Positions 6,048-62,194 of a stretch of DNA of 64,000 bases are shown in pieces. How positions within the stretch are numbered: the first letter of the stretch is position 1; every line of letters starts with the position of its first letter. This stretch comes from a virus. The notes below the pieces were generated by a model. It was not told the origin of the DNA and did not search any database. It saw nothing but the letters and a program-made list of their open reading frames with translations. The DNA lies in IMG/VR virus record IMGVR_UViG_3300028573_000014, positions 15,954 through 79,953 of that record, one strand, 5' to 3'. The position numbers were made by a program, and so were the translations under genes.

Positions 6048-7910
6048 TTTTCCCTCTCTTATTTCTGCTTTTGTGGCTTCCTCAAGCGTGTCAGTCGCCT
6101 CCCGCTCCTGCATCACACTCTTCAAAGCCAGTTCCAAACTCTTGGCGGCAAGCACGGGGCCAAGTCCCGGTTCGGCAGGGGTGCGAGTAAGGCTGCATCC
6201 CGCTAACGGCCACAATCCCAGATGTCCGTCAGCGGGGTCATACCCCTGCTGCGCATAATGGGAAAGGCTGTCACTAGAGTAGGCAAACACACCGTTCGCT
6301 GCGTCTTTCGCAGTGCGGACGTAAAGTGGATGGTCGGTGTGGAGAGCGTGCTCTCCCCAGATTCCCCGTGGGTACACCTTTACCAGGGTGCGTTGCCCAA
6401 TAGGGTCCCCGCCGTAATCGGGGTTTTTGCCGTGTTCCATCCACAGAGGCGCGTTCGGGTAGTAATCCGCAAACGTTTTGGTCATGTCATCAAAAAAGGT
6501 ATCCTGCAAATCGAGATTTTCAGGATCCGTGAAAAGCATCATCCAGCCCTCAACCGAGGTCGGTAGACCATCGACTGCCTTCGAGCCAATCATTGAGGCA
6601 CGGTTGCAAGCACCCTGCGCTGCCAGCGTAGCCTTAACGTCATCCCCGGTTTCTTGCATCACCTGATCGTAGACTTTTGCCCACAGGCTAAAGTCTTTCT
6701 CGCTCAGATCGGATGGCATTTTGCCAGACAGATAAGCCGCAACCTTTGCCTTATCCTCTTTGGACAGGCCAAGTTCAGCCGCGCGTGCCCGAATGCGGGA
6801 ACGAACTGTTGGCTTGTCAGCATCGGGAATGTCGGCACGATTACCGTGCGGAGGGTTAGGTCCCATCGCTGCGGCTGCCAGCAACACATGTCGAGCGTCT
6901 GGCATCGGCAGTTTCCACGAAGATGGTGTGTCCTTATCGGGCACATAACCATACGTGTCAGGATTGGCATCCTTGCCTGCTGCTTCTTCCTCTGGCGCTT
7001 CACCGTAGAAGTAGGCATTGAAGTCTTCTGAGCCACGAGGATGATGAGCCTTTTCGCCTGCCACTTCATCGACTGCTGTTTCAGTCTCAGCAGGCGCATC
7101 GGAGATCTCTTCGATCACTTCCTCATCTGGCTCAGACTTGGTAGCAACGGGCACTTCCCCGTGCGCATGGGCAATGGCTTCTTCGCGTGTGGCGTAGCCT
7201 TCTTCAGGAGAACGCACACCGGAAGTCATGTCCAGAACGCGGTATTTACCGTCGGTCTTGCTCTTTACAATTTTCACTGTCAAGGACTTCTTTCCTTTCC
7301 CGCCGGATAGCGGAATGGTGTAATCCCCTGCCTCTCCATAGGATTCCCAGAGACTGTCAAAGGTCACAGGGACAGGTTGGAGTGGGATTGTCGGGGTAGG
7401 CATCTCTTTATCGATATAGGCCAACGTCATATGCGGCGTGTAGCCATGAGTCTCCAGCGGATCGGCATCCGCACCTTTCAGGAAAGCAACCAGTGCCTGC
7501 CGGAAACGTGGAAGGTCAGGGCAATCGAAGTTCAGGTAGATGCAGTCCTTATCAGGCGCATCCATGAACCGACCAATGCCGTTCAGAGTGCCACTGAGCG
7601 CAGGCCAGCCCTGTGCGAACTTAGTCAGTTCGGACTCCAGCGCTTCCTCATCTGGCATCCAACCGGGATCATCAGTGCTGCCCAGATAGGCCAGCGTGAC
7701 ATGCATTTCATCGACTGGCATCAGGCAGTCTTCTGGTAGTCCAGCGCCCTTCGCCAGTGCGATCAGATGTTGGGCAATAACAGGCGGAATCTTGAACGCG
7801 ATCATGATTCCGTCCTGGTGGTCAGCATCCTTTGCCGGGATACCAATGGTAGAACGGAGAACATAACCGCCTGCTGCCCCTGTCGCGCTGCTCATCGCTT
7901 TGGCCGTCAT
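4533..7910 (-). CDS. Polyprotein: 2H phosphoesterase + DUF6582-like + ChaB-like + HK97-type prohead protease + scaffold + major capsid protein
   Basis: HxT motifs HVT (aa 70) and HMT (aa 160); YGYVPDKDTPSSWKLP module; protease motifs PLWMEHG, YSSDS, SLTRTPAEP; HK97 MCP motifs GGYIL, AQWVGE, DKAALLGTG, FGGDWQYMYIG. Confidence 0.85.
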   Translation of the reverse strand: MTAKAMSSATGAAGGYVLRSTIGIPAKDADHQDGIMIAFKIPPVIAQHLIALAKGAGLPEDCLMPVDEMHVTLAYLGSTDDPGWMPDEEALESELTKFAQGWPALSGTLNGIGRFMDAPDKDCIYLNFDCPDLPRFRQALVAFLKGADADPLETHGYTPHMTLAYIDKEMPTPTIPLQPVPVTFDSLWESYGEAGDYTIPLSGGKGKKSLTVKIVKSKTDGKYRVLDMTSGVRSPEEGYATREEAIAHAHGEVPVATKSEPDEEVIEEISDAPAETETAVDEVAGEKAHHPRGSEDFNAYFYGEAPEEEAAGKDANPDTYGYVPDKDTPSSWKLPMPDARHVLLAAAAMGPNPPHGNRADIPDADKPTVRSRIRARAAELGLSKEDKAKVAAYLSGKMPSDLSEKDFSLWAKVYDQVMQETGDDVKATLAAQGACNRASMIGSKAVDGLPTSVEGWMMLFTDPENLDLQDTFFDDMTKTFADYYPNAPLWMEHGKNPDYGGDPIGQRTLVKVYPRGIWGEHALHTDHPLYVRTAKDAANGVFAYSSDSLSHYAQQGYDPADGHLGLWPLAGCSLTRTPAEPGLGPVLAAKSLELALKSVMQEREATDTLEEATKAEIREGKMDKEDEKEDQEEQKEDAAKDGLEEVNDANDDFDADEQPESTLHALAQMYGCEPEPTAVRGAMDNHIAAINTEGKAHPDLIKALGMPEDSKAEDVTSHLNNLYSAAMSSEKDDVPTATMSDPAPYNYSVLSRHLSSGGGSKSVGPYMTGSIAQKGINQNTGITKTPLAGVYADLKRIARMERPRFVIGAEKAMSSASGPNGGYILHQEISPVVLDPLRAKVVCYQLGAEHIDMQGTNVLTVPIMNSAPDAQWVGENQAVSDSQPGYRTVTLYPHGVSSLVKVPFNVEANMTPQAESQLRNQMAKSIALKIDKAALLGTGGALVSGGGMEIVGILNTPSAQTYDMGGNGRIPQFTDIGQAFGLLDDANVPYDDGSRRGIALHSQISRAFTLATDTLGNPLLRPAWRAAAEREIMAMPYAISNQIPTNVVEGTSTNSSYVFGGDWQYMYIGLSDQVEVRLDQTFAGNLQAGLLIYVYADVKIVYPQAFFVMKGVLPVSISGVTTGTN

Positions 7911-8452
7911 GATTGGAAAGCTCCCAACGCTTCGTCCAGCGCTTCAAGTAACATGTCTTCGACCAGATCTGCAATCTCATTCTCAGCGTCCTCGAAGTCG
8001 TTGCCCCAGCCTGTATTCTCATGGCCTGGAACAGCATCTGGACCGTAGACCGCCTGCGCGTAGTTGTCACCCTTCCAGTCCACAGCGTCATTCTCTATGG
8101 TCAGGAAAGTATCATTGGCACTGGTGTTTTCGGAGACGACCCAACTGCTTTCCAGTTTGTCGGTGCGGTCCCACTGTCCACCGTTCGGGTCCCAGTCCTG
8201 TCCAGGGATCTGCCCGGTTCTCTTCATCCAGAAATACCAGTTGCGACTGGGAAGGGTTGCGAAATCAAAGGGATGCACAACATCACCAGGTGGAGGGGCA
8301 AAGCGGTCATTGACCACTTCCACCACTGCCTCATGGATGGGACCATGCACAGCTTCGTAGATTGGTTCGCGGATGGCAGCGACCTTCTGGCGAATGTCAC
8401 GCAGAACATCTACAGCGACTGAGGGGTTGTACTCCACGCTGAAGAAACTCAT
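7907..8452 (-). CDS. Virion morphogenesis protein (HK97 gp10-like neck/tail completion, putative)
   Basis: RTDKLESSW ... NYAQAVYG ... HENTGW pattern; lies between portal and capsid genes. Confidence 0.5.
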   Translation of the reverse strand: MSFFSVEYNPSVAVDVLRDIRQKVAAIREPIYEAVHGPIHEAVVEVVNDRFAPPPGDVVHPFDFATLPSRNWYFWMKRTGQIPGQDWDPNGGQWDRTDKLESSWVVSENTSANDTFLTIENDAVDWKGDNYAQAVYGPDAVPGHENTGWGNDFEDAENEIADLVEDMLLEALDEALGAFQS

Positions 8453-10809
8453 ATCGCCACCGCCTCAGTGTCAATGACCATATTGTGCTCATGGTCATGA
8501 TGGTCATGTGACTTTGTGCCTGCGATGGGTACGCCTGCCAGTGAACCATTGGCCGGTTCAGTTGTGTCATCGAGCGTACACAGACAGTTAATCCCCGTGC
8601 AGATACAACTATCGGAGCGGGGATAGATTCCATATTTGAGCCAGGTACGCGCACGATGCACCTGCCCGTCAGCACCAGAACACGTTTCGCAGTGGTCTTT
8701 CGTGCCGCCAAGCGTAAATTTCTTCATGCCGTTCATCTTGCCGTACATGTTGCCCAGTATCTTCATGCCCTGTAGACCCTTATTGATCCACAGTTCAATT
8801 CGACTAAGCATGGCATTACGGGCTGCTGAAAACTCAGGGGTCTCCCTGAGCGGAATCACATTGCGATACATGTCGTTTGCCAGCGCAGTCCAGTAACTGC
8901 GTTCCTGCTTTGTTTCCAGATCGAGCGCTGACTTTTCTTCATCGGTCATCTCAGCGGGATCTGTACCCGCTTCCTGCATTCCGTTCTTAAACGCATTCAG
9001 GAAAGCCATCTCAATTTCGCTACGCCCTGCTACTCCGAACTGATTGCGATTCAAGTTTCCCTGGAAAGCATCGGTCATGAGTTCATATAGAGCAGTGCGA
9101 TACTGTGCCTCGGTGTCCTCGTAGCCTTTAACCGCCTGCACCCGGATGGCATTCCAGATTGATTCCGACGGTTCTTCACCGGAAAGCAGGAAACGACCAA
9201 ACGCTACTGCATGGGCGGGTAGAGAGTCGCTCTTAAATGCATAATTTCTGCCCTTGCGCTCAATGAGAACACGCCAGTTCTTCAACTCTTTGTGCTGGGC
9301 ATCGGGCAGGAACGGAATAGGATCGACACTTTTGCCTGTTGGTGCGGTAGGTGCAGTCGCTTCGGTAGATGCGCCCACTTCCGCAGCACGTGGAGTGCTT
9401 TCGCCTGTGCGGGATGGCTTATCGGGCTTAGCATTTTCTCCACCGGAAACCATGCCTGGATTACCAGGGGCCACACGCCAGTAGTTCTGCATTTCAGCGG
9501 ATGGCACTGGAATGCCGCCGATAAGGTACAGACCTGTCAGGTTTTCGTCTACATTCAGCCCCAGTGTTTTCTGAGCATTTGCCAGATCCAGAACACCGTC
9601 CTTAAGCTGCTTGCTCACGGTATCCGTGCGGGATGAGATATCCTCGTCCAGGCCACGTACACGCTTGAAGGTGGGGACAATGCGCCATTCAGGATTGAGT
9701 GGCTTGGCAACCTGCTCAGTGAAGATGTCGGCATAGCGTTCTGACTGCGGGACCAGCCAGCTAATGAGCCATTCACGCTTCTGGTCGTAGAACTTTGTGC
9801 CCTGCGCACGCTGCGCCTGACGTGGCTCAATAAGTTCAAGTGGAACGCGCAGGATACGCAGACAGGCATCACGCGCCTGGTCGGTCAGGTTGGGCATTCC
9901 CAGCTTATCGAAGTCTTGCTGGAATTTCAGCATTTCCCAACGTGTGGGTAGAACAACCGTGCGACCTGCATTGGCTGCGCCCTGATACATCCGGCGCAGG
10001 TATTCACTCAGTTCGAGTTTCTGGTCAGGACCAGGGACATAACTCGACCCGTCCGCAGGCTGAATAACAAAGGATGGCATCGCCATGTTGCGAAAGAACA
10101 TCAATTGCGTGGCTGTGATCTCTGTCTCGGTAGCAGCCTGCGCATAAGCGACCATCAGCGGACCCGTGCCGCCAAAGTCTTCAAAGAAGTCAATGTTATG
10201 GAAATAAACAGTGTCTTCCGGCGGCAACCAGTCCAGATCTGGTTCAAGCTCGCTGCCCCAGACCGGACGGATATGGAAACCGCCCAGACCGCGTGAAGTA
10301 TCGGTCTCACGGCGGAAGAAGTTATTGTTAATCCACTGAAACCCGTCGAGAATGCCAGACTGAGTCTTCAACCGACGCAGCAACACTTCGCCATAGCAGC
10401 AGTAGGACGTTTCAGACCGCTCAATAATGCTCTGGAAGTTAGACTGGAATGCCGCCTGAATGCCCTGAGCGCGAGGGGTGAAGAATTTGGGATCTCCCTC
10501 TTCGAGCAGTTCTCCAGCGGCATTGGCGATCTTAAAGTCAACCTGGCGCAGCGACTCAGCGCGGAGTTCAATGGCAGAACGTGCTGTAACTGCTGTCCTG
10601 AACAAATGTGCGATCTCGCTGTAGGAGACCTGCGGACGTAGCAGTGCGACTTCCTGATTCAGGTAAGTCTTGATAGCGCTGCCGCTGTTTTCCATGACGT
10701 TGAAGGGCAGGTCATTCAGGTCCAGTTCAAAGCGATTCTTGCGAATCGTTTGCGTGATCTGCTTTGATCGATTCTTTTTGCCCTGGAAGTGTCGATTACG
10801 GTGACTCAT
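8449..10809 (-). CDS. Portal protein fused to C-terminal MuF-like minor head domain
   Basis: Portal motifs YGEVLL, FFRNMAMP, AANAGRTVVLP, LRVPLELI; C-terminal HCETC...CTGINCLC Cys cluster; ATGA overlap with TerL stop. Confidence 0.85.
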   Translation of the reverse strand: MSHRNRHFQGKKNRSKQITQTIRKNRFELDLNDLPFNVMENSGSAIKTYLNQEVALLRPQVSYSEIAHLFRTAVTARSAIELRAESLRQVDFKIANAAGELLEEGDPKFFTPRAQGIQAAFQSNFQSIIERSETSYCCYGEVLLRRLKTQSGILDGFQWINNNFFRRETDTSRGLGGFHIRPVWGSELEPDLDWLPPEDTVYFHNIDFFEDFGGTGPLMVAYAQAATETEITATQLMFFRNMAMPSFVIQPADGSSYVPGPDQKLELSEYLRRMYQGAANAGRTVVLPTRWEMLKFQQDFDKLGMPNLTDQARDACLRILRVPLELIEPRQAQRAQGTKFYDQKREWLISWLVPQSERYADIFTEQVAKPLNPEWRIVPTFKRVRGLDEDISSRTDTVSKQLKDGVLDLANAQKTLGLNVDENLTGLYLIGGIPVPSAEMQNYWRVAPGNPGMVSGGENAKPDKPSRTGESTPRAAEVGASTEATAPTAPTGKSVDPIPFLPDAQHKELKNWRVLIERKGRNYAFKSDSLPAHAVAFGRFLLSGEEPSESIWNAIRVQAVKGYEDTEAQYRTALYELMTDAFQGNLNRNQFGVAGRSEIEMAFLNAFKNGMQEAGTDPAEMTDEEKSALDLETKQERSYWTALANDMYRNVIPLRETPEFSAARNAMLSRIELWINKGLQGMKILGNMYGKMNGMKKFTLGGTKDHCETCSGADGQVHRARTWLKYGIYPRSDSCICTGINCLCTLDDTTEPANGSLAGVPIAGTKSHDHHDHEHNMVIDTEAVAI

Positions 10810-12179
10810 AAGAATATGTACTCCGCAGTGGGCCATGCAACATCAATGGGCGGAGGAGGCGGAAACTGGACATTTCCATAAAGCACATCAGCGGGGATAA
10901 TGCCCTGCGAGGCGTGCGGGATATCGATAAGTTCCGGTGCCCACTTGGGAACACCGTAGGTTGCGCCATGATAGGCCAGCGCTAGAGACATCACCATATC
11001 GTCATTCGAGTCACGGGGACCGGAATAACGGAATGCGCCAGATGGCAGTCGCTCCATCTGGAATGCATGGAGTTCGTCCAGAAGAAGCTGACCTATCGGC
11101 TGACCGTCAATGGCTTCACCCTTGTGAAGAACCTGTAGCTGACGATTGTCGAAGGCGGCAGCCAGTGCCTCAATGATGAGCGCCTTACTGCTACCACTGG
11201 TAGTGAAGGGCATAATGGGCAAGCCAGTGTCCATGAGACTTTCCATGAACGCCAGGTTGGTATTCTGCTCGACAATGATGCCTGCTGCGTGGAAAAGATT
11301 TGCCAGTGCAACAATGCGACCTTTTTGCAGCTTGTAGTCCACATGGTTGGCCCGGTCAATATAACAAACCGACATCAACGTTACGTCGATGACGGTGAAC
11401 ACGGAAAAGTCATTGGTCTTGGCAAGGTCAACGCCGATGACGTAGGTATGACCGGCCTTTGGCTGAGCCTGAACAAAGCCCTGCGCCATCTCTTCCAGAT
11501 TGCGGAACACAGATCCTGCATCCGAAATGAACTCGGCCAGGTATTCCTGCGAGAAAATGTTGACGGGCGTAGTTTTACGTGCATCTTCAATTTCACTTGC
11601 AGGCAGGAACGGATTGTCGGAAGAAGGCTTGTGCCAGCTCTCCCAGTCGGGAAAAGCGTCGTTTTTGCCCAGTCGATACAGATTCCAGAACCAGTTGTAA
11701 CCCTTTGGCGTTGAGGCAAACAGGGCACGACCCTGCGTGGTCATGAGCATGGGTCGGATAACTTCTTGCCAGGTGTCACCAGAGGGAACAACCGCAGCCT
11801 CGTCAATGAGCACGAGATCGTATTCGCGTCCACGAGGACCATCTGGGTTGTCCAGTGACCACATTTCCACGACTGCACCGTTGATGGTCTCAATACGGTG
11901 TTCGTCTTCCTTCTTTTCCTTCGTGATGGGCGCAAGCATGTTCTTGACAATGCGCCACATGTCTGCCAGCATCTTGTAGGTCGGGCACATGTAGGCAATG
12001 CGCTTGGCCTCGGACACTGCTCGAAGTATTTCAGCACGAAGGGTAACGGTCTTGCCCCATCGTCGACCACAGTCCAGAACACGGAACCGGGCAGGCGACT
12101 CATAGACTTCTATCTGTCCAGGATGAAGGGCGAGACCCAGATAGACATTAATCCTGTTGTCCATCGACCACCTGTGCAT
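10806..12179 (-). CDS. terL: Terminase large subunit
   Basis: Q motif HPGQ, Walker A GRRWGKT, Walker B LIDEAA, motif III ASTP, nuclease GVDLA...VEQN...NDDMVMSLALA. Confidence 0.95.
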   Translation of the reverse strand: MHRWSMDNRINVYLGLALHPGQIEVYESPARFRVLDCGRRWGKTVTLRAEILRAVSEAKRIAYMCPTYKMLADMWRIVKNMLAPITKEKKEDEHRIETINGAVVEMWSLDNPDGPRGREYDLVLIDEAAVVPSGDTWQEVIRPMLMTTQGRALFASTPKGYNWFWNLYRLGKNDAFPDWESWHKPSSDNPFLPASEIEDARKTTPVNIFSQEYLAEFISDAGSVFRNLEEMAQGFVQAQPKAGHTYVIGVDLAKTNDFSVFTVIDVTLMSVCYIDRANHVDYKLQKGRIVALANLFHAAGIIVEQNTNLAFMESLMDTGLPIMPFTTSGSSKALIIEALAAAFDNRQLQVLHKGEAIDGQPIGQLLLDELHAFQMERLPSGAFRYSGPRDSNDDMVMSLALAYHGATYGVPKWAPELIDIPHASQGIIPADVLYGNVQFPPPPPIDVAWPTAEYIFL

Positions 12180-12645
12180 CTATGACTCTGGTGGTCTCTT
12201 CATCCTTCTTTTGCGGAGCGCCCAGAACGAAATTGATAACAATGTCGCCCCGTCCAGATTCCTGCTTCGGGCTGTACTTCTCTGGCCGGTTGCCTTTCAG
12301 GTGAATTTCAATCGCCTTGATTTTGGCTCCGGCAGGCGTATCCGGGGCAAGCGCCATGTCAACCAGCGCATCTTCGACATCATCTACAATGGACTCTTGA
12401 ACATCATCCATAAGCTGGCGGAAGGCTGGATCAGTCTCACGCCAACGATAGACCATAAACTTTTGTAGATCCGCTGCTTTACAGGCTTTACCGAGGTGCG
12501 CCCGAAACTCGGAATAGGTCCGCAGAAAGCGTTCTTTCTGGTCCTGAATCTCAGCAAGCCGTTCTTCTTCCACATTGAATGCAGGAGAAAACGACTTGAT
12601 ATCTCGGTCTGGAGTTTGATCTAAGCGCTGCTGCCCGTCAGTCAC
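12148..12645 (-). CDS. terS: Terminase small subunit
   Basis: HTH (ACKAADL..VYRWRETDPAF), LKGNRPEKY motif; directly upstream of TerL. Confidence 0.8.
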   Translation of the reverse strand: MTDGQQRLDQTPDRDIKSFSPAFNVEEERLAEIQDQKERFLRTYSEFRAHLGKACKAADLQKFMVYRWRETDPAFRQLMDDVQESIVDDVEDALVDMALAPDTPAGAKIKAIEIHLKGNRPEKYSPKQESGRGDIVINFVLGAPQKKDEETTRVIDAQVVDGQQD

Positions 12646-12660
12646 ATGATTTAGCCCATA

Positions 12661-12699
12661 AACAAAGAAGCATCTAATGGCAACAGATTAGATGCTTTT
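12661..12699 (-). terminator. Intrinsic terminator between middle genes and late operon
   Basis: 11-bp stem AAGCATCTAAT/ATTAGATGCTT, 8-nt loop, U-rich tails on both sides. Confidence 0.6.
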
Positions 12700-12741: not shown

Positions 12742-13095
12742 CTACGAGGTGTGTATTACCTCAGAAAATCTACTCTCTCTTATGACGGGATGGCTATATT
12801 GAGAATTGACCAGAAAGAATTCACCGTTCTTTTTAACGGCACGGCATTCCCAGGGACGGGTCAGTTGCATTGCATAGTTGAACGCATTGCCCGTCGAGAT
12901 GCCCATGATTTTCCCGATCTTCTCGTAGGTCGGTGTATTGCCACCGTGATCTGCGGCATAGAAAGCAATAATGAGTTCGACCCGATCTCGCTGCAATAAA
13001 TCCTTGTTTGCAATGAGTTCAATGAGTTCATCGGGCGGGATCCACTCGTCCAGGTCAGGCTGGAAGGGTTTGCGTTCTGTAGATTTATTTGACAT
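12742..13095 (-). CDS. LexA-N-like winged HTH DNA-binding protein
   Basis: FYAADHGGNTPTYEKIGKIMGIS resembles LexA DNA-binding domain; no peptidase domain. Confidence 0.6.
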   Translation of the reverse strand: MSNKSTERKPFQPDLDEWIPPDELIELIANKDLLQRDRVELIIAFYAADHGGNTPTYEKIGKIMGISTGNAFNYAMQLTRPWECRAVKKNGEFFLVNSQYSHPVIRESRFSEVIHTS

Positions 13096-13324
13096 CGGTC
13101 AATGCCTTTAATCGCTCAGATATATCCCACGAGGACTCACTTAGCCAGTACTTCTTGTCTTTGCAGGATACTTTTCCATATGATACCAGTTCCCTGACAT
13201 ACATGTGGGCGTTCCCTGCGCTTGTGGCAGCCCCTTCCGCTATTTCGCGCATCGTGGGAAACTGTCCACCATGAGAAAGTCCATAGGTTGCAATAAAGAG
13301 TTCTATTTGATCGCGTTTTACCAT
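13085..13324 (-). CDS. LexA-N-like winged HTH DNA-binding protein (paralog)
   Basis: HGGQFPTMREIAEGAATSAGNAH..VRELVSYG. Confidence 0.65.
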   Translation of the reverse strand: MVKRDQIELFIATYGLSHGGQFPTMREIAEGAATSAGNAHMYVRELVSYGKVSCKDKKYWLSESSWDISERLKALTDVK

Positions 13325-13860
13325 GATTTTGACTTTACCATAAAAGGTCCACGGACGTTAGGACTAAAGCGTGCAGCAACAGTCAGCGCCAGTTCGATCC
13401 GATGATCAACATCCCTCATTTTCTCAGTAGACCCAAGCGATCCGAGTGCATAATCTTCGCCAGATCCACAGGCAGCATAGTTCTCTGCGTAATGATTGAC
13501 CTGAAAATCACTACAGACGCAGTAGATAGTTCCATGATAGCCTACCAGAAATTCTCCGCTGCTTTCCAGATTGTTTTCGATCTTGGAGATACCATGTTCT
13601 TTGAACAAACTGCGAACGTTTTCTGCAAAAACTTTGACCATGTAGGCATCGTCAGAAACACCGTCTTTCTGCCTGGGAACAGTCAGATGATGCTGCAAGA
13701 TTTGCCCCATCCTGAATGACCAGGTATAGCCAATGAGGAAGTCTCCGACCTCGAAAACCTTTGGCAGCAGGCTGGTTCGCATTGTATTGCCTACGCTGGA
13801 TGAACTATCAGCGCCTATGTATACCGTGTCGTTTTTAGCGATGCCAACAATGCAGGTCAT
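13318..13860 (-). CDS. Ntn-hydrolase, HslV/proteasome-beta-like peptidase
   Basis: N-terminal MTCIVG (Thr nucleophile), GADS, ACGSGEDYALGSL. Confidence 0.8.
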   Translation of the reverse strand: MTCIVGIAKNDTVYIGADSSSSVGNTMRTSLLPKVFEVGDFLIGYTWSFRMGQILQHHLTVPRQKDGVSDDAYMVKVFAENVRSLFKEHGISKIENNLESSGEFLVGYHGTIYCVCSDFQVNHYAENYAACGSGEDYALGSLGSTEKMRDVDHRIELALTVAARFSPNVRGPFMVKSKSW

Positions 13861-14264
13861 TTGTATCCTTTGCTACTATCGTTTATGCTGCTAATTTCAC
13901 TGGATATTGTGGCAATATAGGCGCGGCCATCCTTAAATTTCACAATTACTTTTGTGCCCGGATATTTACCAGCCGCAACCCCCAATGGATCGTCAATGGA
14001 AATAGAGATAAAGGAGCCTTTTCGCATAAACCGTACAAAGGTTTTCCCTTCGGAATCTGGGTCGTAAATATAGCCTTCCGCAGTCCCTAATATGCCAACC
14101 TCACCTTCCTCAGTGTCTGGCGTATCGGATGGCGGACTCCACCAGGGCAAATAGAGATCAGGCCACATTTCGCGCTGATCGAAGTACCGATCCCGCTTCG
14201 ACTGCCACTTGTGCTGCCGTGCATCTCGCCCCAGTCGGCGGATGGCTTCCAGTAAGGTTGTCAT
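13857..14264 (-). CDS. Hypothetical protein
   Basis: ORF coupled to neighbours by ATGA overlaps. Confidence 0.55.
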   Translation of the reverse strand: MTTLLEAIRRLGRDARQHKWQSKRDRYFDQREMWPDLYLPWWSPPSDTPDTEEGEVGILGTAEGYIYDPDSEGKTFVRFMRKGSFISISIDDPLGVAAGKYPGTKVIVKFKDGRAYIATISSEISSINDSSKGYK

Positions 14265-14869
14265 GATATCCTGTAAGGACTTTCCATGACAGGCGGATCA
14301 TCCCCGGTAAGTTCAACAAACTCTCCGAGCATATCCGCGCGAAACCCGACCTCGGAGGAGGACTCCACCACACTGCGAAGATCCTCGGCATTAAGGAACG
14401 GGTTGGTTTTGATGGGGAACATGAAGAACGCTGCATCGAGAAAGTGCTTCTTGCTCTGGGCGAACTTCTTCAACTCGATAAACAGGTCGGTCTGGTGCTT
14501 ATGGCTTGGAACAGGCGTACCGACTGCCAGCAGTTTCCCGTCTGGGATTAAGCACGGCAAAAGTTCATCGAGCAAATAAGGAGTCATGGTCGCAGGCTCA
14601 TTGATGATGACGAGATCGAACTGATGTCCCCTGTATTTATCCTCGTTTTTCTCCATGTAGACAATTTTTCTGCCGCTGCTTACCACCATTGTTGTTTTGA
14701 AGAATTTGTTCATCCCGTGATTTGGACCAACAAAGAGGATTTCACGAGCATCGGATATCTCTATGCAAAATCTGCATAGTGCATCTTTGCCCCAGCGCCG
14801 ACTGGTAGACACAACACGGTAGCGATCTCTGGAGTCCAGGACTAATTGCTGTCCAGTATGCGGGATCAT
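14261..14869 (-). CDS. Stand-alone degenerate terminase ATPase domain (TerL N-terminal paralog)
   Basis: Aligns by eye with TerL aa ~17-220: PHTGQ, SRRWGKD, RGHQFDLVIINEPA, VGTP, TNPFL, MLGEF; Walker A T->D, Walker B D->N. Confidence 0.85.
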   Translation of the reverse strand: MIPHTGQQLVLDSRDRYRVVSTSRRWGKDALCRFCIEISDAREILFVGPNHGMNKFFKTTMVVSSGRKIVYMEKNEDKYRGHQFDLVIINEPATMTPYLLDELLPCLIPDGKLLAVGTPVPSHKHQTDLFIELKKFAQSKKHFLDAAFFMFPIKTNPFLNAEDLRSVVESSSEVGFRADMLGEFVELTGDDPPVMESPYRIS

Positions 14870-15132
14870 TCTGTTGCCGCCTTGATCTCCTGATCGATCT
14901 GATCTGCCAGTGAACGCAATTCATTGGCGCGACTTTTGACCTGCATCCACGAAGCAATGGAATTAAGCAATGGTTCGTAATTGAAGTCGGGCAAAATCGC
15001 TGGTCCGTTAGGCAAAAAACGGGGAAGTGAATTCCCGCTGGCAACATCATTTAGTAGATGGAAAGCCCGAATTTCCTCCTCGGTGCAGGTTACAATAATC
15101 TCACCCTGAGACGTATAGCCAATTTGTTTCAT
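14866..15132 (-). CDS. Hypothetical protein
   Basis: Translationally coupled ORF. Confidence 0.55.
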   Translation of the reverse strand: MKQIGYTSQGEIIVTCTEEEIRAFHLLNDVASGNSLPRFLPNGPAILPDFNYEPLLNSIASWMQVKSRANELRSLADQIDQEIKAATE

Positions 15133-16256
15133 TTCGTTTTCACTCCTTCAATAGCCTTCCGTAGTTCTTCAGCAACTCTGCCCACCTCTACCGATCTCAT
15201 CTTCAAGTGCATGGGGAGCGACAATAGACGGTTACTGGCCTCGGTTGCTCTGGGCAAGTATCCGTGATACATCGGATACTGCGTGTTATCGACATAATGT
15301 ACACCCGTTCCAATGCCAGCCAACTTCAGCGCATTGACCACTTCATTGCGGTTATCTACCAGTACCTGATACAGATGGCGAGACGGGACGCAATCTGGGG
15401 ACATGGGCACGGTCTCGCAGACACCTGCTAACAGCTTGTCATACAGGGCTGCGATGCTCCGTCGATGCTGATTGTCATCGTCCAGATATTGCAGGGCAAC
15501 CAGTCCCATTGCTGCCATGATACTGTTGCCGTTGTATTTCCAGCCAACATTCTCCACGTCATATTCCCATGAGTATCCGGTGCCGGAAGACCTTGCATAG
15601 GTATCCTTGTCGATGCCCATCCAGGACAATTTGCGCGACTGAGCATCCATTTCAGGATCTGCCCAACAGATCATGCCAGAATCGCCCGTCGGTAGATTTT
15701 TCACTGCCTGAAAGCTGAACACGGAAACATCAGCGGTTGCACCAACATGATCGCCATCTAGCCAGCGCGTTCCTGCCATGTGAGCAGCGTCCAGAATGAG
15801 CTTTAACCCATGAGATTGGCATATCTCCCAGATTTTGGCGTACTGTCCTACATTGCCTCCAAGTCCTACGAAAACTACGGCTCTGGTGCGCGGGGTGATT
15901 TGCTCCTCTACACTGTCGGGGTCCAGACACATGTACTGGTCAACATCTGCGAATACAGGTGTTAATCGTTCATACAAAATAGGATGATTCGTGCTGACGA
16001 AGGTGATCGGCGTGGTGATCACTTCATCACCATCGGACCATCCATAACTGAGTTCGTGCATTGCCAAATGAAGTCCTGCTGTCGCACTATTCAAGAAGCA
16101 CGCATTTGGCAGTCCAGTGTATTTCTTCCACGCTTCTTCAAACTCAACAGTCTTGTAACCGATGCCCGTCCAGCCCTTTTCGAGACACTGGCGAATCTCG
16201 GCAAGCACTTCTTCGGTGCGAAAGACGGGGGTGAAAAGTTGGATGGAATCGCTCAT
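15129..16256 (-). CDS. DegT/DnrJ/EryC1/StrS-family PLP-dependent sugar aminotransferase
   Basis: NSATAGLHLA, DAAHMAG, FSFQAVKNLPTGDSG (PLP Lys), LSLPMH. Confidence 0.95.
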   Translation of the reverse strand: MSDSIQLFTPVFRTEEVLAEIRQCLEKGWTGIGYKTVEFEEAWKKYTGLPNACFLNSATAGLHLAMHELSYGWSDGDEVITTPITFVSTNHPILYERLTPVFADVDQYMCLDPDSVEEQITPRTRAVVFVGLGGNVGQYAKIWEICQSHGLKLILDAAHMAGTRWLDGDHVGATADVSVFSFQAVKNLPTGDSGMICWADPEMDAQSRKLSWMGIDKDTYARSSGTGYSWEYDVENVGWKYNGNSIMAAMGLVALQYLDDDNQHRRSIAALYDKLLAGVCETVPMSPDCVPSRHLYQVLVDNRNEVVNALKLAGIGTGVHYVDNTQYPMYHGYLPRATEASNRLLSLPMHLKMRSVEVGRVAEELRKAIEGVKTK

Positions 16257-16641: not shown

Positions 16642-17433
16642 GTGATCTACCAGCCGTCTCCAATTGGTCGGATATGCAAAAAGTGCAACGAATGGAAACC
16701 GCGAGCAAGGCTCGTAAAGGAAAAACGCTGTCTCTGGGGCGTACATGCCCTTTGCCTTGACTGTGTTGCTGCGAGAATAAGAGAAGACAGACAGAAAAAT
16801 CCTCTCAAATACCGTATTTATGAGCGGAAATTTAGAAAAGAACATCCAGATCGGTATCGCACATATCAAAGAAGCCATAACGAACAGAGAAACGCAGGAA
16901 ACCGTCGCCGCCGCGCTCTCAATCCACAACATGCTAGAGACTATCACAATAGATGGCGAAAGAAGAATCGTGAACTTGTCAGACGGTATGAACAAGCGAC
17001 TAATAGCCGTCATCCTGATCGCGTAAAGCAAAAATCGCAGGTGAGAAGATCCCGAAAGCATAACCTTCCCTCCGAATTCACTGAAAAACATTGGTTGGAA
17101 TGTCTTCAATACTTCAACAATAGATGCGCATACTGCGGTAGACCACAAGGACTGTGGCATTCTCTTTCGCAAGATCACTTTATCCCAGTTAAAAAAGAGG
17201 GCGGTTATATTCCAGGCAACATCGTACCAGCATGTCATGGTATAGATGGTTGCAATGAGAGCAAACACGACAAGGATGCCGTTGATTGGCTGACTGCAAA
17301 GTACGGAAAGCGAACAAGCAAATTGATCTTGCAAAGAATATTTGCCTATTTTCAATGGGTCGAGCATTCTAGCGCGTTACCCTCAACTGAAAATCCCGCG
17401 CAGGTTCATGCCACACACCAGGGACAATCGTAA
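16642..17433 (+). CDS. HNH homing endonuclease (inverted insertion)
   Basis: CKKC/CLDC Zn finger, basic linker, CAYCG...DHFIP...GNIVPAC...CNESK; only + strand gene in a - strand block. Confidence 0.9.
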   Translation: MIYQPSPIGRICKKCNEWKPRARLVKEKRCLWGVHALCLDCVAARIREDRQKNPLKYRIYERKFRKEHPDRYRTYQRSHNEQRNAGNRRRRALNPQHARDYHNRWRKKNRELVRRYEQATNSRHPDRVKQKSQVRRSRKHNLPSEFTEKHWLECLQYFNNRCAYCGRPQGLWHSLSQDHFIPVKKEGGYIPGNIVPACHGIDGCNESKHDKDAVDWLTAKYGKRTSKLILQRIFAYFQWVEHSSALPSTENPAQVHATHQGQS

Positions 17434-20856: not shown

Positions 20857-21139
20857 TGTTAACCACCTTGTTCATTTCTTCCCGCACAATAAGGCGGATC
20901 ATTCTGGTCAAGTCAACCGACTTCTCCAGCGGGACATAATTTGCCGCGTAATCAGTGGAGATGCCCAGTGCCACCACGCCCGGAATGCTTGCCCTCATTC
21001 TTTGCAAAACAGCATTGATAAGTTCCCCGTCTCGGCCTGCAACAATCCAGACATCATCACCCAGATTGAACATTTTCATCTTTCCCAGGTCGAAGATTCC
21101 AGGTTGAGTAGCATCAATTGGCTCAGGTAGATCACTCAT
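20843..21139 (-). CDS. Hypothetical protein
   Basis: Coupled ORF. Confidence 0.5.
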   Translation of the reverse strand: MSDLPEPIDATQPGIFDLGKMKMFNLGDDVWIVAGRDGELINAVLQRMRASIPGVVALGISTDYAANYVPLEKSVDLTRMIRLIVREEMNKVVNNATE

Positions 21140-21389
21140 CCAACATTCCTTTCACAACACCCTCAATGTATTTCTTTAAAACTTCATTGTCATTAAGATT
21201 AAGCACTATTTCCAGCGAGAAGGGCAAGACTACCATTCGCACACCGATAGGAGCCAGCCTTTCCTGGTACACACTCACAACATGATCGAGCTTTTCATGA
21301 TATAGTGGCGATGCACCGAGCGGTAGTCCAAACAGTATCAGCGTCGGGCTAACAACGATAACCGAAAGCAGAATGTCAGGCGTAGCCAT
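21132..21389 (-). CDS. Hypothetical protein (weak portal clip-like pattern)
   Basis: MATP...RMVVLPFSLEI versus portal MAMP...RTVVLPTRWEM. Confidence 0.45.
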   Translation of the reverse strand: MATPDILLSVIVVSPTLILFGLPLGASPLYHEKLDHVVSVYQERLAPIGVRMVVLPFSLEIVLNLNDNEVLKKYIEGVVKGMLDE

Positions 21390-21390
21390 A

Positions 21391-21939
21391 TTATGCAAAC
21401 CTTATCGATAGGCCACCGTGCCGCGTGCCATGCAAAGCCAGTGCGGTAGCCACTACTGTTTCAGTGTTTCTGACGGGCAGAAAATCTCCCTGTCCGCCAG
21501 CGCGGTATTCATAGCCAGATAGCTCATTGATAAGCCCTTCGTCAGGAACAATGCGCAATCGCCCCATATTTAATTCCAGCGCCAGATTATTGAGCATGTC
21601 GGCTCTGCTTGCCCTGGTCATACGTAGTGGGTACACGGGTAATCCCTCCGATCGCAACGCTTCGATGTTAGGACCGCCAATGCTGGCCGCCTCAACATAG
21701 ATAAGCTGCGGTTTCCATATTTTGTGCAACGCGGATACTCGATCTCGCTGCACTGCATAACCCTCACCTATGGTTCGGTCCAGCGCGACCAGTTGATGCG
21801 TTGTAGCATCCATAATGGCTACGCCCATACGGTCCATATGGTTTCCCCAGTCCAGCCCGAAGACTATCCGATGACCAACAACAGGCTTATCCTGCGGCTC
21901 AACTCTGGCATATCGTTCTGGATTGGGGAAGAGCCTCAT
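21391..21939 (-). CDS. Stand-alone terminase RNase H-like nuclease domain (TerL C-terminal paralog), degenerate
   Basis: GLDWG..D, YVEA, GLPV, LINEL; terminal NDDMVMSLALA of TerL becomes NTETVVATALA. Confidence 0.85.
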   Translation of the reverse strand: MRLFPNPERYARVEPQDKPVVGHRIVFGLDWGNHMDRMGVAIMDATTHQLVALDRTIGEGYAVQRDRVSALHKIWKPQLIYVEAASIGGPNIEALRSEGLPVYPLRMTRASRADMLNNLALELNMGRLRIVPDEGLINELSGYEYRAGGQGDFLPVRNTETVVATALALHGTRHGGLSIRFA

Positions 21940-22565
21940 CTCTTTGTTGCCTTTCGTGCTGGCGCTTTGGCCTTTGCCTTTGTGGTAATGGCTCCAGTAC
22001 CTTCGCCTATCGTAGGCGTTCCACCGGACACTTCAAACTCATAGTGGGCAGGAGAAGACTTTGGCTCATCAATCTCACCCCACACTCGTACAGCACTGGC
22101 GCAGACATCGTAGCCAGATTCCACGGTGCGAATATCATCGAGTACGCCCGTGTTCGTCATGAGTTCACGCAGGGCTTCTTCGGACATTCGCCACAGGTCC
22201 GGTCCAGATTTTACGGGCGGTTTGGTGAAGGAGGGGGTAACAATTACCAGTAACCCCTGCGGATGCATTACGCGGACCAATTCTTTCATCCATGACACGA
22301 GATCCAGCACTGCGTAAGCCACGCTGCCTGAGATAACAATGTCATAGTGACCGCTTTCGATGGGATAGTGGTAGGGATTATCTGCCACGATATCCACATT
22401 GGAGTTGGCTTCCAGGTCCAGCCCCGTGTAATGCCAGCCAAGCGACACGATGTACTCCCTGTAGGACCCGTTTACGTTGAAAGCGCCAACGTCCAGCACT
22501 GAAGCGCCAGTCTCAGGGTAGCGTTGCAAAGCGTCAGCCATAAGGTCCAGACTTCCCTGGTGCAT
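21936..22565 (-). CDS. Class I SAM-dependent methyltransferase
   Basis: VLDVGA, YTGLD, NVDIVAD, YDIVIS, ELVRVMHPQG. Confidence 0.85.
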   Translation of the reverse strand: MHQGSLDLMADALQRYPETGASVLDVGAFNVNGSYREYIVSLGWHYTGLDLEANSNVDIVADNPYHYPIESGHYDIVISGSVAYAVLDLVSWMKELVRVMHPQGLLVIVTPSFTKPPVKSGPDLWRMSEEALRELMTNTGVLDDIRTVESGYDVCASAVRVWGEIDEPKSSPAHYEFEVSGGTPTIGEGTGAITTKAKAKAPARKATKR

Positions 22566-58428: not shown

Positions 58429-60846
58429 TTAGAAGCCCTCCAGGTTGATGTTGTTGGACACGTAATCGATAAAGCTGGTTGTGTTGCCGACCCAGCGAGT
58501 TGTGACACGCGCACCGCTCTTGTGATTGCGCTGCTTGGCGATATGCAGTTCAGCTATTCCGGGCACATTGCTGTTTTCGTCATAGAAGTCATCCCGGTAA
58601 ATGAAGATGATGGTATCTGCCACCTGCTCAAGCGTACCAGAGTCGCGCAGGTCAGACATGATAGGACGTTTATCCGCACGTTTTTCCAGATCGCGGTTGA
58701 GCTGGCTCAGGGCGATCACGGGAATGCGGAAGGTCTGCGCCAGTTCTTTGAGCGCTCGACCAATAACATCGATCTCGTTATTGCGGTTCTGAATAGCCCG
58801 TCCGACATTGCTTTCCAGCAACTGCACAAAGTCTATAACCAGCAGGTCGATGCCCCATTCACGGTGCAGACGCTTGATCCGATGGACCAGAGTCTTGACA
58901 TCCGTGTTGGGTGTGTCATCGATGGCAATGGGAAGTTCCGAGGCAATGCCTGTAGCATCTGTGAAGCGCGTCCACTCTGGACCGGTCAGGTTGCCCTGCT
59001 TCATCTGTTCGCCAGTCAGGCCAGATCCACTGGCGGTAACGCGGAAGGTCAGTTCATTGCCCGTCATTTCCTTAGTGACAATAAGCGTATGTTTACCTTG
59101 ACTGGCAGCCGCTACTGCACTACCCATCGCCAGCGCAGTGTTGTGAGTAACGGTCATATCTGCCAGTAAAAACAGACCATCTCCGTCCAACTCGAACCCA
59201 AAGTATTCGCCTTCACCAGCGGACTCAATGCGAATTCCAGTTACATGCGAATCTTTCTGATAAACTGGGTTTCGTGGCTTTTTTCGCTCAATAAGCACAG
59301 GAATATCTGTCATGTCTCCCGAAAAGCGCACGCGATAAGCCATTCCAGAGAAGCCCGTTTGACATGTCACAGGCTTCTCAATAAGCGAAGTCCGATAACC
59401 AAGCGTATCAGCAAGAAACTTGATCTGTTTCGCCAGATCAGGTAAGGCAAGCGTGATCTCATAGGTGTTATATTCGGCCTGATAGCAGCCATCAGAGTCG
59501 ATTAGTCCTGCAAGGAGACTGAGACGAATATCACGACTATTTGCAAGATACGATTTAGGTATGTGCTTGTTTCCCAGAATACCGAGTTCGCGCAGTTGTA
59601 CCTGCAAACTCTGGTAGCGATTCTTCATAGTCGCCTTTATTCGATACGTGTTGCAATGTCTCCCACGATTATTGTAAACAGTCAGAACTTCGCCCCGATC
59701 TAAAGCCAATTGCGCCAAATATTCCCCGATTTCAGGATCGGCATTGTGGATACTAGATGATGCCGTAGTGCCATCGCCTAGCCATAGGCCCAAAAAATAA
59801 GCGGGGATCGGGACATTGCTCTCAGGAAAATCTACAGCAACCTTGTAGCCCTTGTATCTCGCAAAGAAGCCTGGTCCGCGCGGCTTCATTCCCGTGTTGC
59901 CAAGAATTTCATCCACACTGATGTTCAAGATGTCCCCGTGAGAATGCTTTCCTTCATTCTTGGATCGTTTGAGCGAAAGAATATGAGGACCATTGACTTT
60001 GTAGGAAATGCCCTTCTGCTGATGTACCCAGTACAACGGTTCTACCCCATGCGCTAACGACAAAACTGAACGAGGGCTTGAGTCGGGTCCCATCAAAAGA
60101 TTGCTTGTCTTCACATCTTCGACCTTGATGAGATCGCCGTTATAGAGCATGACCTCAGTTCCCTTAGCGAGGCATTTCCCCATGCCAGGTCTTGCAGCAA
60201 TGAGAATGACTTCGCCATCATTCCAGCCGTGTGCCACCAGTTCTTTGTCGAGATCGACCAGTCCAGTGGAGATACCTGCGGGGACACCGTTGTTGTTATA
60301 CGCTGTCTGTACCTTATCGTAGTTTTCGCTGGCGAATTCACTGATGAATTTGAAATCGCCATCCTGCCGAATTTTGGTGGCATCGGTCAAAATGTCGTGG
60401 GCCTGCTGAATTAATTCAGGAAGGGGCCTATTTGCTTCGATAAAGAGTTGAGCCATATCTCCGCAAGCCTTAAGCCCTTTGCGCCTTACAGACATGTGTT
60501 CTACGATGCGTGCGTAGGTTTCTGCATGAAGATGCGTCGGTGTGCCGTTGATAAGTTTTGTGATGGCTGCGGATCCGCCAACTTCTTCCAGTTTGCCTTT
60601 GGTAATGAGTTCTTCAACAACAGTGATGTTGTCAATGTCATCTCCGCGATCATCCAGTGCCAGCATGGCCTCAAAAATCCAGCCGTGCTTGACAAGGAAA
60701 AAATCATCGGGGGTGAGAAAGCCAGAAACAACCGCAATTGATTCTGGATTGATCATGATGCTGCCCAGTACCGCTTCTTCAGCTTCGACGGAGTTGGGCG
60801 CAAGGTCGGGATTAACCAACAAATTTGCGACCATATTTTGCCTCAT
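58429..60846 (-). CDS. dnaB: Replicative DNA helicase with intein
   Basis: EAEEAVLG, AARPGMGK|T, IDFVQL, LSQLNR, DLRDSGTLEQVAD, IAKQRN. Confidence 0.95.
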   Translation of the reverse strand: MRQNMVANLLVNPDLAPNSVEAEEAVLGSIMINPESIAVVSGFLTPDDFFLVKHGWIFEAMLALDDRGDDIDNITVVEELITKGKLEEVGGSAAITKLINGTPTHLHAETYARIVEHMSVRRKGLKACGDMAQLFIEANRPLPELIQQAHDILTDATKIRQDGDFKFISEFASENYDKVQTAYNNNGVPAGISTGLVDLDKELVAHGWNDGEVILIAARPGMGKCLAKGTEVMLYNGDLIKVEDVKTSNLLMGPDSSPRSVLSLAHGVEPLYWVHQQKGISYKVNGPHILSLKRSKNEGKHSHGDILNISVDEILGNTGMKPRGPGFFARYKGYKVAVDFPESNVPIPAYFLGLWLGDGTTASSSIHNADPEIGEYLAQLALDRGEVLTVYNNRGRHCNTYRIKATMKNRYQSLQVQLRELGILGNKHIPKSYLANSRDIRLSLLAGLIDSDGCYQAEYNTYEITLALPDLAKQIKFLADTLGYRTSLIEKPVTCQTGFSGMAYRVRFSGDMTDIPVLIERKKPRNPVYQKDSHVTGIRIESAGEGEYFGFELDGDGLFLLADMTVTHNTALAMGSAVAAASQGKHTLIVTKEMTGNELTFRVTASGSGLTGEQMKQGNLTGPEWTRFTDATGIASELPIAIDDTPNTDVKTLVHRIKRLHREWGIDLLVIDFVQLLESNVGRAIQNRNNEIDVIGRALKELAQTFRIPVIALSQLNRDLEKRADKRPIMSDLRDSGTLEQVADTIIFIYRDDFYDENSNVPGIAELHIAKQRNHKSGARVTTRWVGNTTSFIDYVSNNINLEGF
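59140..60174 (-). mobile_element. LAGLIDADG endonuclease-containing intein in DnaB P-loop (345 aa)
   Basis: GK|CLAKGT ... VTHN|T; LGLWLGDG and LAGLIDSDG motifs. Confidence 0.95.
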
Positions 60847-62194
60847 AGTTTGCTTCTTCAGCTTCGCGTTTGCGGAGTTCGCCAGGAGTCATCATGCGCT
60901 TGGGATCTCTGGGGTCGGGAATGAGATTTGATTTTCTGTCGGGTACGCGCTCAACTTTCCAGGTGGTAATGTTCTTAGCAACGTAATCGAAAGATACAGT
61001 TTGTCCCTTCCAATAATCTTCCCCCTTCTTTCCCTTCACGTAGACCATCATCTCAGCAGGGGTAATGCCTTCATGGTGCAGGACCAATGCCGCATTGATC
61101 ACGCCGCGCATGATCTGGATTTGCCAATTCACCACTGGAATTGCTGGGTGGGCTTCAAGCCACGCTTTGAACAGTAAGCCTGCGCTGCGCATCTCATCCG
61201 AAGTGATACCAGCCTGAAACAATTCCTTCGAGAATCGTGAGAACGCGCCAACGCTAAATGTCTTGGGGACATATTTCTCCAGCGCTAGCCTCCACGCTTC
61301 GATAGGACGCATGTGATCCTGGGTTCGGTCCATCGCCTTTTCGAGACAGATGGGGCACGGCTGCTGTGGATTGGCCTCGGACTGCATACCGCCATAGGAT
61401 GGCAATGGTCGGATGCCGCAGAATGTCACAGTCGGCTGGTTGGCCTCGCGCACCAGATGGGCGCGCTCGCCATCCAGCGGATAAATCCAGCGCGTCTTTT
61501 CAGGCGCAGGCGGAAACTCCACCAGGGGGGTCGCCGCAACTGGGGGGTTCTTAGATTCCAATTCTCCAGTAAGGTCAGGAACGATCACTGGAATATCTGG
61601 AACGATCACTTCTGGAATGTTCGGAATTTCCGAAGACTTCACATCCGGGGTTGGAACAACTCCGAAAGAATCTTCTTCTATTGTTGAATCATTCTTGTTA
61701 TTGATTCTTGTTATATTATTCTTGTTTGGGTAAACCTGGTTTAGTACCCCTACTAAACCAGGTTTAGTACCCTCCTCAACCCCATTTACCCCCCCTACTA
61801 AACCAGGTTTAGTACGTAAACCAGGTTTAGTACCCTCGGATCGTCTGTTTATCTCAGAAAGGGTAAAGGTATAGTTGTCCTGAACCACCTTTCCAGCCTT
61901 TGTTGTTTTGTAATTCGGTGACGCAACAATGAGTTTTGCTTCAGAGAGTTCATTTAACCCTTTTCGGACAGTCGGCATTGATACTTTAAGCTGCTTGGCA
62001 ATAGTCTTGATAGACGGATGGGACCTGCCCGTTTTAGACCTTGAATAGTAGCAAAGCAGCATATAGATCGAGAATGCATAGATGCTCAGATCGGGCAGAT
62101 AAACTTCAACGATTTCTCTGTCAGCCCAAAAGTGTCCAGGGTGGCGTTCAGTTCTGGCTTTCATGGGCTGACCATCTTGTATGATAGTCAACAT
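60812..62194 (-). CDS. Replication initiator (HTH_36, lambda O-like)
   Basis: IYMLLC...PSIKTIAKQLKVS..TVRKGLNEL; contains iterons; precedes DnaB. Confidence 0.8.
   Translation of the reverse strand: MLTIIQDGQPMKARTERHPGHFWADREIVEVYLPDLSIYAFSIYMLLCYYSRSKTGRSHPSIKTIAKQLKVSMPTVRKGLNELSEAKLIVASPNYKTTKAGKVVQDNYTFTLSEINRRSEGTKPGLRTKPGLVGGVNGVEEGTKPGLVGVLNQVYPNKNNITRINNKNDSTIEEDSFGVVPTPDVKSSEIPNIPEVIVPDIPVIVPDLTGELESKNPPVAATPLVEFPPAPEKTRWIYPLDGERAHLVREANQPTVTFCGIRPLPSYGGMQSEANPQQPCPICLEKAMDRTQDHMRPIEAWRLALEKYVPKTFSVGAFSRFSKELFQAGITSDEMRSAGLLFKAWLEAHPAIPVVNWQIQIMRGVINAALVLHHEGITPAEMMVYVKGKKGEDYWKGQTVSFDYVAKNITTWKVERVPDRKSNLIPDPRDPKRMMTPGELRKREAEEANYEAKYGRKFVG
61670..61833. repeat. Replication origin: four TAAACCWGGTTTAGTAC iterons plus adjacent AT-rich tract
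   Basis: Copies at 61731, 61754, 61799, 61817; TTCTTGTT-rich tract 61670-61730. Confidence 0.8.

Follow-up and report, generated by a model that had tools for sequence, protein, structure and literature searches.

The closest well-studied relatives of the protein analyzed here are the nuclease domains of the large terminase subunits (TerL) of G20c and P74-26 (HK97-like, Terminase_6N/6C; PDB 5M1F, 5TGE). In G20c, D294, D347, and D429 are indispensable metal ligands, the D428N/A and H427A mutants have strongly reduced nuclease activity, and D300 is not required (PMC5389553). On its own, the P74-26 nuclease domain shows neither DNA binding nor cleavage, since the ATPase domain is what grips the DNA, and the C-terminal tails of TerLs mediate protein contacts (PMC5389665); in the D6E TerL, a conserved C-terminal arm locks both domains together. 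T4 encodes vs.8, an extra single-domain TerL copy that is accessory and fast-evolving, comprises the ATPase only, and keeps Walker A and B (bioRxiv 10.64898/2026.04.30.721860). In phi29 gp16, as reported (PMC7672431), a C-terminal ‘vestigial nuclease’ has lost its catalytic constraint and is kept for binding; there, the nuclease fold is fused to a working ATPase in the only motor. A phage-encoded accessory protein acting on the packaging complex is known from the TERi system of Listeria prophages (bioRxiv 10.1101/2025.02.27.640495), in which TerI, a small protein with no claimed homology to TerL halves, senses the small terminase subunit. On the side of host immunity, Avs3 is reported to read TerL active-site residues together with bound ATP.

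Here we describe NUCp, a nuclease-only TerL homolog of an uncultured soil phage, and ATPp, an ATPase-only protein encoded in the same genome. NUCp shares with the G20c and P74-26 enzymes the fold and the terminase-specific hairpin region; unlike them, it is not fused to an ATPase, its hairpin is shortened, the equivalents of H427 and D428 are gone, and D429 is replaced by Glu. It is, moreover, encoded away from terS and the portal gene in a phage where a normal TerL does the packaging, and the active site is unconstrained in its cluster. ATPp is the element resembling vs.8, whereas NUCp is nuclease-only and paired with an ATPase half in reversed order; in contrast to the phi29 domain, it is a separate protein beside an intact TerL. 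Neither a nuclease-only TerL family nor a conserved nuclease-plus-ATPase pair was found described in the literature searched. Stand-alone TerL ATPase paralogs are already known from vs.8; what appears to be new is the nuclease-only counterpart.

A second set of terminase domains in a soil phage

The window, that is, the whole stretch of 64,000 nucleotides that was analyzed, comprises bases 15954-79953 of a 79,953-base IMG/VR viral contig from rhizosphere metagenomes (CheckV completeness about 51%); we refer to this phage as G000. Nearly all genes between about 4.5 and 37 kb of the window lie on the minus strand, and those relevant here are, in transcription order:

24150-22747, minus strand: glycosyltransferase, first in transcription order, with a small membrane ORF next
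21936..22565, minus strand: SAM-dependent methyltransferase
21391..21939, minus strand: NUCp, stand-alone TerL nuclease-domain (RNase H-like) protein of 182 aa, recognized by homology and AF2 fold
15129..16256, minus strand: DegT-type sugar aminotransferase, among the sugar-modification genes between both halves
14261..14869, minus strand: ATPp, stand-alone TerL ATPase-domain protein of 202 aa
13857..14264, minus strand: 135-aa ORF with 4-nt overlaps with ATPp and with the HslV-like gene
13318..13860, minus strand: HslV/proteasome-like Ntn peptidase (phrog_1040), two genes downstream of ATPp through 4-nt overlaps
12148..12645, minus strand: small terminase subunit TerS (phrog_4044, E 1e-13; Sf6_terminase)
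10806..12179, minus strand: resident full-length TerL (457 aa); Walker A/B intact, nuclease motif SNDD
8449-10836, minus strand: 795-aa ORF after TerL, putative portal

In G000, a full TerL, a nuclease half, and an ATPase half each occur exactly once. The resident TerL occupies the packaging slot beside TerS; NUCp is encoded 9 kb from there, surrounded by genes for sugar modification. The ATG of NUCp overlaps the stop codon of the upstream methyltransferase as ATGA, with GAAAGG ten bases upstream, and the gene that follows starts one base past the NUCp stop. NUCp and ATPp share one strand, on which NUCp is the upstream gene and 6.5 kb separate the two; this interval holds about ten genes, including a further methyltransferase, the DegT aminotransferase, and a reverse-oriented HNH endonuclease. 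Two small ORFs separate the HslV-like gene from TerS.

Several further features of the region were recorded. The HNH endonuclease (263 aa; 16642-17433, plus strand; HNH E 1e-5) is encoded on the opposite strand between both terminase halves, looks like a homing-endonuclease-type insertion in the minus-strand operon, and is overlapped by a 259-aa antisense ORF. Reads of four rhizosphere runs mapped to the window revealed strain variants. In rhizosphere run X9, a contig joins position 21139 to 21391, with 251 bases skipped or replaced, the shorter side of the joint being only 36 bases; these bases correspond to the 88-aa ORF directly downstream of NUCp (21132-21398, minus strand), so that small gene may vary between strains. 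The 88-aa ORF was considered as a portal fragment and rejected, there being no similarity to the 795-aa putative portal in BLASTP (E 2.5). Elsewhere, at 58429-62194 on the minus strand, a gene pair encodes proteins whose sizes, 460 and 805 aa, would suit a TerL and a portal; the smaller product (60812-62194) has no similarity to TerL or to either half and was discarded as a second TerL.

NUCp and ATPp tile a whole TerL in reversed order

A preliminary description of this locus, made from the letters alone, held that NUCp is a stand-alone TerL nuclease-domain homolog that begins at the ATPase/nuclease boundary, and both statements were borne out. BLASTP against the resident TerL matches residues 3-175 of NUCp to its residues 224-409 (26% identity, E 9e-13), with LFPNPE of NUCp facing VFRNLE of TerL at the interdomain linker, and NUCp begins two residues before this LF. 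A phmmer search of the PDB retrieved the nuclease domains of the G20c and P74-26 TerLs (E 7e-10 to 1.5e-9), and an exhaustive profile-free search retrieved 1094 proteins at E <= 1e-3, nearly all of them TerLs, and 340 at E <= 1e-10. The AF2 model (pLDDT 93.4, pTM 0.90) has the G20c and P74-26 nucleases as its top Foldseek matches (E 2e-13; TM about 0.8, ranging over 0.74-0.81), accompanied by the other TerL nucleases of T4, D6E, and SPP1. The stop-to-stop frame measures only 213 aa and has no ATPase domain in the same polypeptide: NUCp is a complete TerL nuclease domain and nothing more. It received no family assignment in PADLOC, NCBIfam, or PHROGs. The search with the Pfam Terminase_6C model, which the preliminary description had recommended, gave NUCp 13.3 bits against a cutoff of 22.6 and missed the resident TerL too.

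That NUCp might instead be a resolvase-like nuclease of independent origin did not withstand comparison. RuvC of T. thermophilus (PDB 4LD0) has the RNase H-like fold and the two-metal chemistry of the class to which NUCp belongs, but its structural match is much weaker (TM 0.45-0.50; RuvC chains rank 34 or lower), and NUCp falls inside the TerL radiation. RuvC families in Pfam or NCBIfam gave no match for NUCp.

ATPp covers the remainder of the enzyme: it matches residues 19-222 of the resident TerL (25% identity, E 5e-14) and phrog_2 (E 3e-11), and its AF2 model is a TerL ATPase domain (pLDDT 89; TM 0.72 to P74-26). The two proteins accordingly tile a whole second TerL (224-409 plus 19-222 in resident TerL numbering), as had been proposed. 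ATPp ends with ...GEFVELTGD and 12 further residues, and NUCp starts with MRLFPNPE; these positions place the break in the DxGxVF linker, with zero gap and zero overlap. The preliminary description was also right that the halves stand in reversed order, 6.5 kb apart, and because the order is reversed they are not one gene interrupted by an insertion. We tried a split-intein ‘fractured gene’ (PMC2677866) and rejected it: ATPp ends 17 aa after GEFV and NUCp begins 2 aa before LF, which leaves no room, and neither protein matched any intein family. Intein, intron, and simple-insertion origins of both halves are ruled out by the order and the boundaries together. As a matter of speculation, the reversed order could have arisen by tandem duplication followed by reciprocal domain loss or, equally speculatively, by integration of a circular TerL-bearing element through recombination within the linker. 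A TerL split in normal order was seen on another IMG/VR contig (L148), as two consecutive ORFs at 1322-1720 (a 132-aa ATPase start) and 1730-2581 (283 aa); unlike the reversed pair, this is probably a frameshift or an assembly error.

The active site of NUCp

At the positions of G20c D294, D300, D347, H427, D428, and D429, NUCp has D30, D36, E83, N158, T159, and E160, respectively. The first Asp and the Glu that had been noted as kept are thus D30, in the motif GLDWG, and E83, in YVEAAS. The final metal-binding NDD had been said to become NTE, and this is correct, the SNDD of the resident TerL (HDD in most relatives) corresponding to NTE in NUCp. E160 of NTE, however, aligns with the metal-A ligand D429 of G20c, and this ligand is therefore conservatively replaced rather than lost. 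Such a D-to-E exchange occurs in 0/99 full-length relatives. The auxiliary H427 and D428 equivalents are absent, their places being taken by N158 and T159. At further sites that are invariant in full-length TerLs, NUCp has A85 for N, N124 for E, and R112 for K; it also retains D36 and Q64. With an acidic residue still present in NTE where the metal ligand belongs, NUCp is not to be called nuclease-dead from its sequence alone.

A stand-alone nuclease family with relaxed catalytic positions

The closest matches to NUCp are not TerLs but proteins of 150-196 aa (P0003 at 51% identity, P0016 at 46%, and a dozen more), which have a Met near the same linker motif at the start and IxF[A/V] at the end. 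NUCp bears all the marks of this family: the x-F start, the PNIEALQxEGLP core, the IxF[A/V] end (...SIRFA), and a relaxed active site. In a tree of 119 nuclease domains, the 17 stand-alone rows form one side of a branch whose base is weak (SH-aLRT 33), with 15 rows held together at 83; NUCp groups with P0003, P0016, and P0030 at SH-aLRT 93. The terminal branches of the stand-alone proteins have about double the length seen in TerLs. The resident TerLs of G000 and of a second phage with both halves, G001 (see below), lie elsewhere. The comparison with the resident TerL called for in the preliminary description thereby puts the two proteins in separate parts of the tree, and NUCp is not a paralog made from the resident TerL: it sits in an old stand-alone cluster whose nearest full-length kin is another TerL lineage. 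Those nearest full-length TerLs carry the same IxF end (e.g., L004, ...SIRFA). Three candidates (P0013, P0117, and P0124) were rejected as stand-alone members: with HDD intact and a position nested among TerLs, they are taken as truncated gene calls.

A GTDB scan for the nearest full-length TerLs (L036-L081) yielded 46 loci, all full length and almost only from Chloroflexota MAGs (Anaerolineae, Thermoflexus, and Aggregatilineales), together with two from Pleurocapsa. This distribution hints that the lineage ancestral to the stand-alone family may have had Chloroflexota hosts. The resident TerL of G000 (10806-12179) has a C-terminal extension of 45 residues past the last nuclease helix (…NVQFPPPPPIDVAWPTAEYIFL), different from the short IxF[A/V] end common to NUCp and its sister TerLs.

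Column statistics contrasted 99 full-length TerLs with 16 stand-alone proteins at the positions of the G20c catalytic residues:

D294: full-length 99/99; stand-alone 12 D, 2 E, 2 lost
D300: full-length 99/99; stand-alone 7 D and 4 E
D347: full-length 99/99 (as Glu); stand-alone 10 E, 4 D, 2 lost
H427: full-length 92/99; stand-alone 0 His
D428: full-length 98/99; stand-alone 5 D and 1 E
D429: full-length 99/99; stand-alone 8 D, 3 E, 5 lost

The acidic triad is kept in only 9/16 stand-alone proteins, and the nearest kin of NUCp are each without an essential ligand, P0003 with Leu replacing D294 and P0016 with His replacing D429. Further columns invariant in full-length TerLs are relaxed in the stand-alone set (T38, Q64, N85, F105, K112, E124, and E139), whereas others are tighter there than in TerLs (R24, R65, A94, Q96, E98, I179, and F181). 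Helix 89-98 and strand 100-105 (PNIEALQxEGLP), as well as the C-terminal IxF[A/V], exceed TerLs in conservation. Relaxed catalytic and DNA-contacting columns combined with a tightened 89-105 element and C-terminus indicate that selection keeps the fold, this element, and the tail rather than catalysis. The dimer interface of RuvC is formed by helix B, the helix conserved in the NUCp family.

As to the distribution of the family, the ESM Atlas has several clusters of viral proteins of 175-195 aa near NUCp, and uncultured phages may thus harbor a large family of this kind. GenBank phage isolates searched with NUCp gave only Thermus and Tunturiibacter TerLs and no stand-alone homolog; scans of IMG/VR, JGI metagenomes, and GTDB recovered, G001 apart, nothing but TerLs that were either full length or cut off by a contig end.

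Degenerate ATPase halves and a second genome with the pair

A profile search assembled five ATPase halves: ATPp, P0163 (70% identity), P0165 (41%), P0166 (27%), and the G001 copy (24%). ATPp has SRRWGKD for the canonical Walker A GRRWGKT, IINE for the canonical Walker B LIDE, and GTP for STP, and is without a loop matching the basic patch with which P74-26 grips DNA. All five have GK[D/N] instead of GKT/S in Walker A, an Asp or Asn replacing the Mg-binding Ser/Thr; all five have the STP coupling motif turned into GTP with an insert after TP; and all five end about 15-20 residues past GEFV. The Walker B Asp is changed to Asn in 3/5, and the catalytic Glu is invariant. GK[D/N], GTP, and the insert are shared derived states, which argues against random decay. 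Three of the copies, placed in a tree, form one group at SH-aLRT 91, a value to be read with the caveat of long branches.

The second genome encoding both halves, G001 (IMGVR_UViG_3300012956_000002), is a complete phage of 75,929 bp with direct terminal repeats. Its relevant genes are:

1455-2717: TerL, with the portal next
6747-7337: nuclease half
10793-11503: ATPase half
12021-12662: HslV-like peptidase
12900-14039: DegT, just after the HslV-like gene

As in G000, TerL and both halves are each present in a single copy. Between the halves lie a formyltransferase and a GT4 glycosyltransferase, and the slot between the ATPase half and the HslV-like gene is filled by a DNA methyltransferase, to which the 135-aa ORF in the same slot of the window proved not to be homologous. 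All-against-all BLASTP of G000 and G001 found only about eight related protein pairs, among them TerL (39% identity), the nuclease half (37%), the ATPase half (24%), HslV (31%), and DegT (25%). In both genomes, the nuclease half is followed by sugar genes, the ATPase half, a variable gene, and HslV; with so few shared proteins, this order has been conserved across a very deep divergence. A dN/dS comparison of NUCp with the G001 nuclease half would be saturated at 37% amino-acid identity.

The earlier suggestion that the ATPase half is the partner of NUCp is plausible in view of G001, where a single TerL and both halves recur in the same order. The co-occurrence of both halves is seen in two genomes only; the nuclease half P0016 and the ATPase half P0165 are each on Logan contigs of roughly 100 kb, and the proteins of the window itself recur on 11 near-identical contigs. 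The presence of the pair in a very distant second phage marks it as a selected accessory device. The HslV-like gene also occurs in a phage fragment (L019; 3178-3798) about 2 kb from TerL with no visible halves, and HslV is consequently not counted as a proven member of the unit.

Discussion

We favor, with about even confidence, the reading that NUCp and ATPp form an ancient split second terminase that is catalytically degenerate and would act by binding rather than by cutting. The two halves may reassemble non-covalently as a TerL-shaped heterodimer, with the conserved C-terminal arm of NUCp perhaps clamping the ATPase half in the manner of the D6E TerL arm. Such a crippled mimic could then take a site meant for the real TerL, be it on the motor ring, on the TerS or portal of its own phage or of a competitor, or on a host terminase sensor (Avs1-3, Upx), so that packaging would be modulated or the sensor blunted. 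No relationship is detectable between the portals of G000 and G001, which speaks against a conserved role of the C-terminal end in portal docking. The TERi precedent supports this class of mechanism for NUCp and ATPp. What speaks against the binding reading is that NUCp keeps the triad, D36, Q64, and a conservative K112R, and is possibly an active nuclease; the residual D30/E83/E160 triad may still permit weak cleavage in NUCp, even if the family would not be selected for it.

The chief rival, possible though on the unlikely side, is that NUCp is an active accessory nuclease with a D30/E83/E160 two-metal site, with or without ATPp holding the DNA. Its tasks might then include debranching or trimming of replicating DNA ahead of packaging, or destruction of DNA from the host or a competitor. 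The intact triad makes this a serious contender for the NUCp copy: the three indispensable G20c ligands are all acidic, the D300 equivalent is kept, an acidic triad is found in 9/16 family members, and the predicted structure is a complete RuvC-like RNase H nuclease fold. On the other hand, the equivalents of H427 and D428, whose mutation strongly reduced activity in G20c, are gone, as are the N85 and E124 that are invariant in full-length TerLs, and the inactivity of the isolated P74-26 nuclease domain, in both DNA binding and cutting, together with the missing basic-patch loop of ATPp for gripping DNA, speaks against cleavage. Furthermore, the two nearest relatives without an essential ligand imply that catalysis is not under selection in the subclade of NUCp.

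Within the binding-type reading, a more specific and rather doubtful proposal is a conserved phage module in which both halves, perhaps together with the HslV-like peptidase, would build a catalytically crippled terminase look-alike in two pieces that serves either attack or protection. In attack, it would poison the motor with which competing or resident phages package their DNA; NUCp resembles, in its sequence and C-terminal end, the TerLs of Chloroflexota prophages and not the TerL of its own phage. In protection, it would blind host sensors of TerL.

Less probable still is that the halves are a decoy for, or an inhibitor of, the sensors that read TerL (Avs1-3, Upx), binding them without productive oligomerization. 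Consistent with such a role, the TerL fold is kept and yet exactly the ligand-binding positions that Avs3 is reported to read are altered in both halves, both halves evolve fast, and both lie among accessory genes outside the core packaging block. However, PADLOC gave no match for NUCp, ATPp, the HslV-like protein, or seven neighbors, and the stand-alone TerL-ATPase-like proteins Ksap1/2 and vs.8, as well as isolated ATPase domains, trigger Avs2 instead (bioRxiv 10.64898/2026.04.30.721860); because isolated TerL ATPase domains and vs.8 activate this sensor, a decoy role is not the default expectation.

That both ORFs are decaying, functionless remnants of a second terminase gene is very improbable, for although the catalytic motifs are degenerate in both halves and NUCp falls under the Terminase_6C cutoff, about 16 nuclease-half proteins, down to about 30% identity, have intact frames that share one N-terminal boundary and one C-terminal motif, G000 and G001 resemble each other about as closely in the nuclease half as in TerL, the ATPase halves share conserved derived substitutions (GK[D/N], GTP), the NUCp gene is tightly coupled translationally, and the AF2 predictions for both proteins are confident.

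No protein of tailed phages is more conserved than TerL, which is also a target of several host immune sensors and of phage-phage interference. ATPase-only TerL copies are just coming to notice, and the nuclease-only family represented by NUCp is their missing counterpart. With D30/E83/E160, the IxF tail, and the Walker A GKD as mutational handles, NUCp and ATPp offer a concrete two-protein system for asking what terminase look-alikes do.
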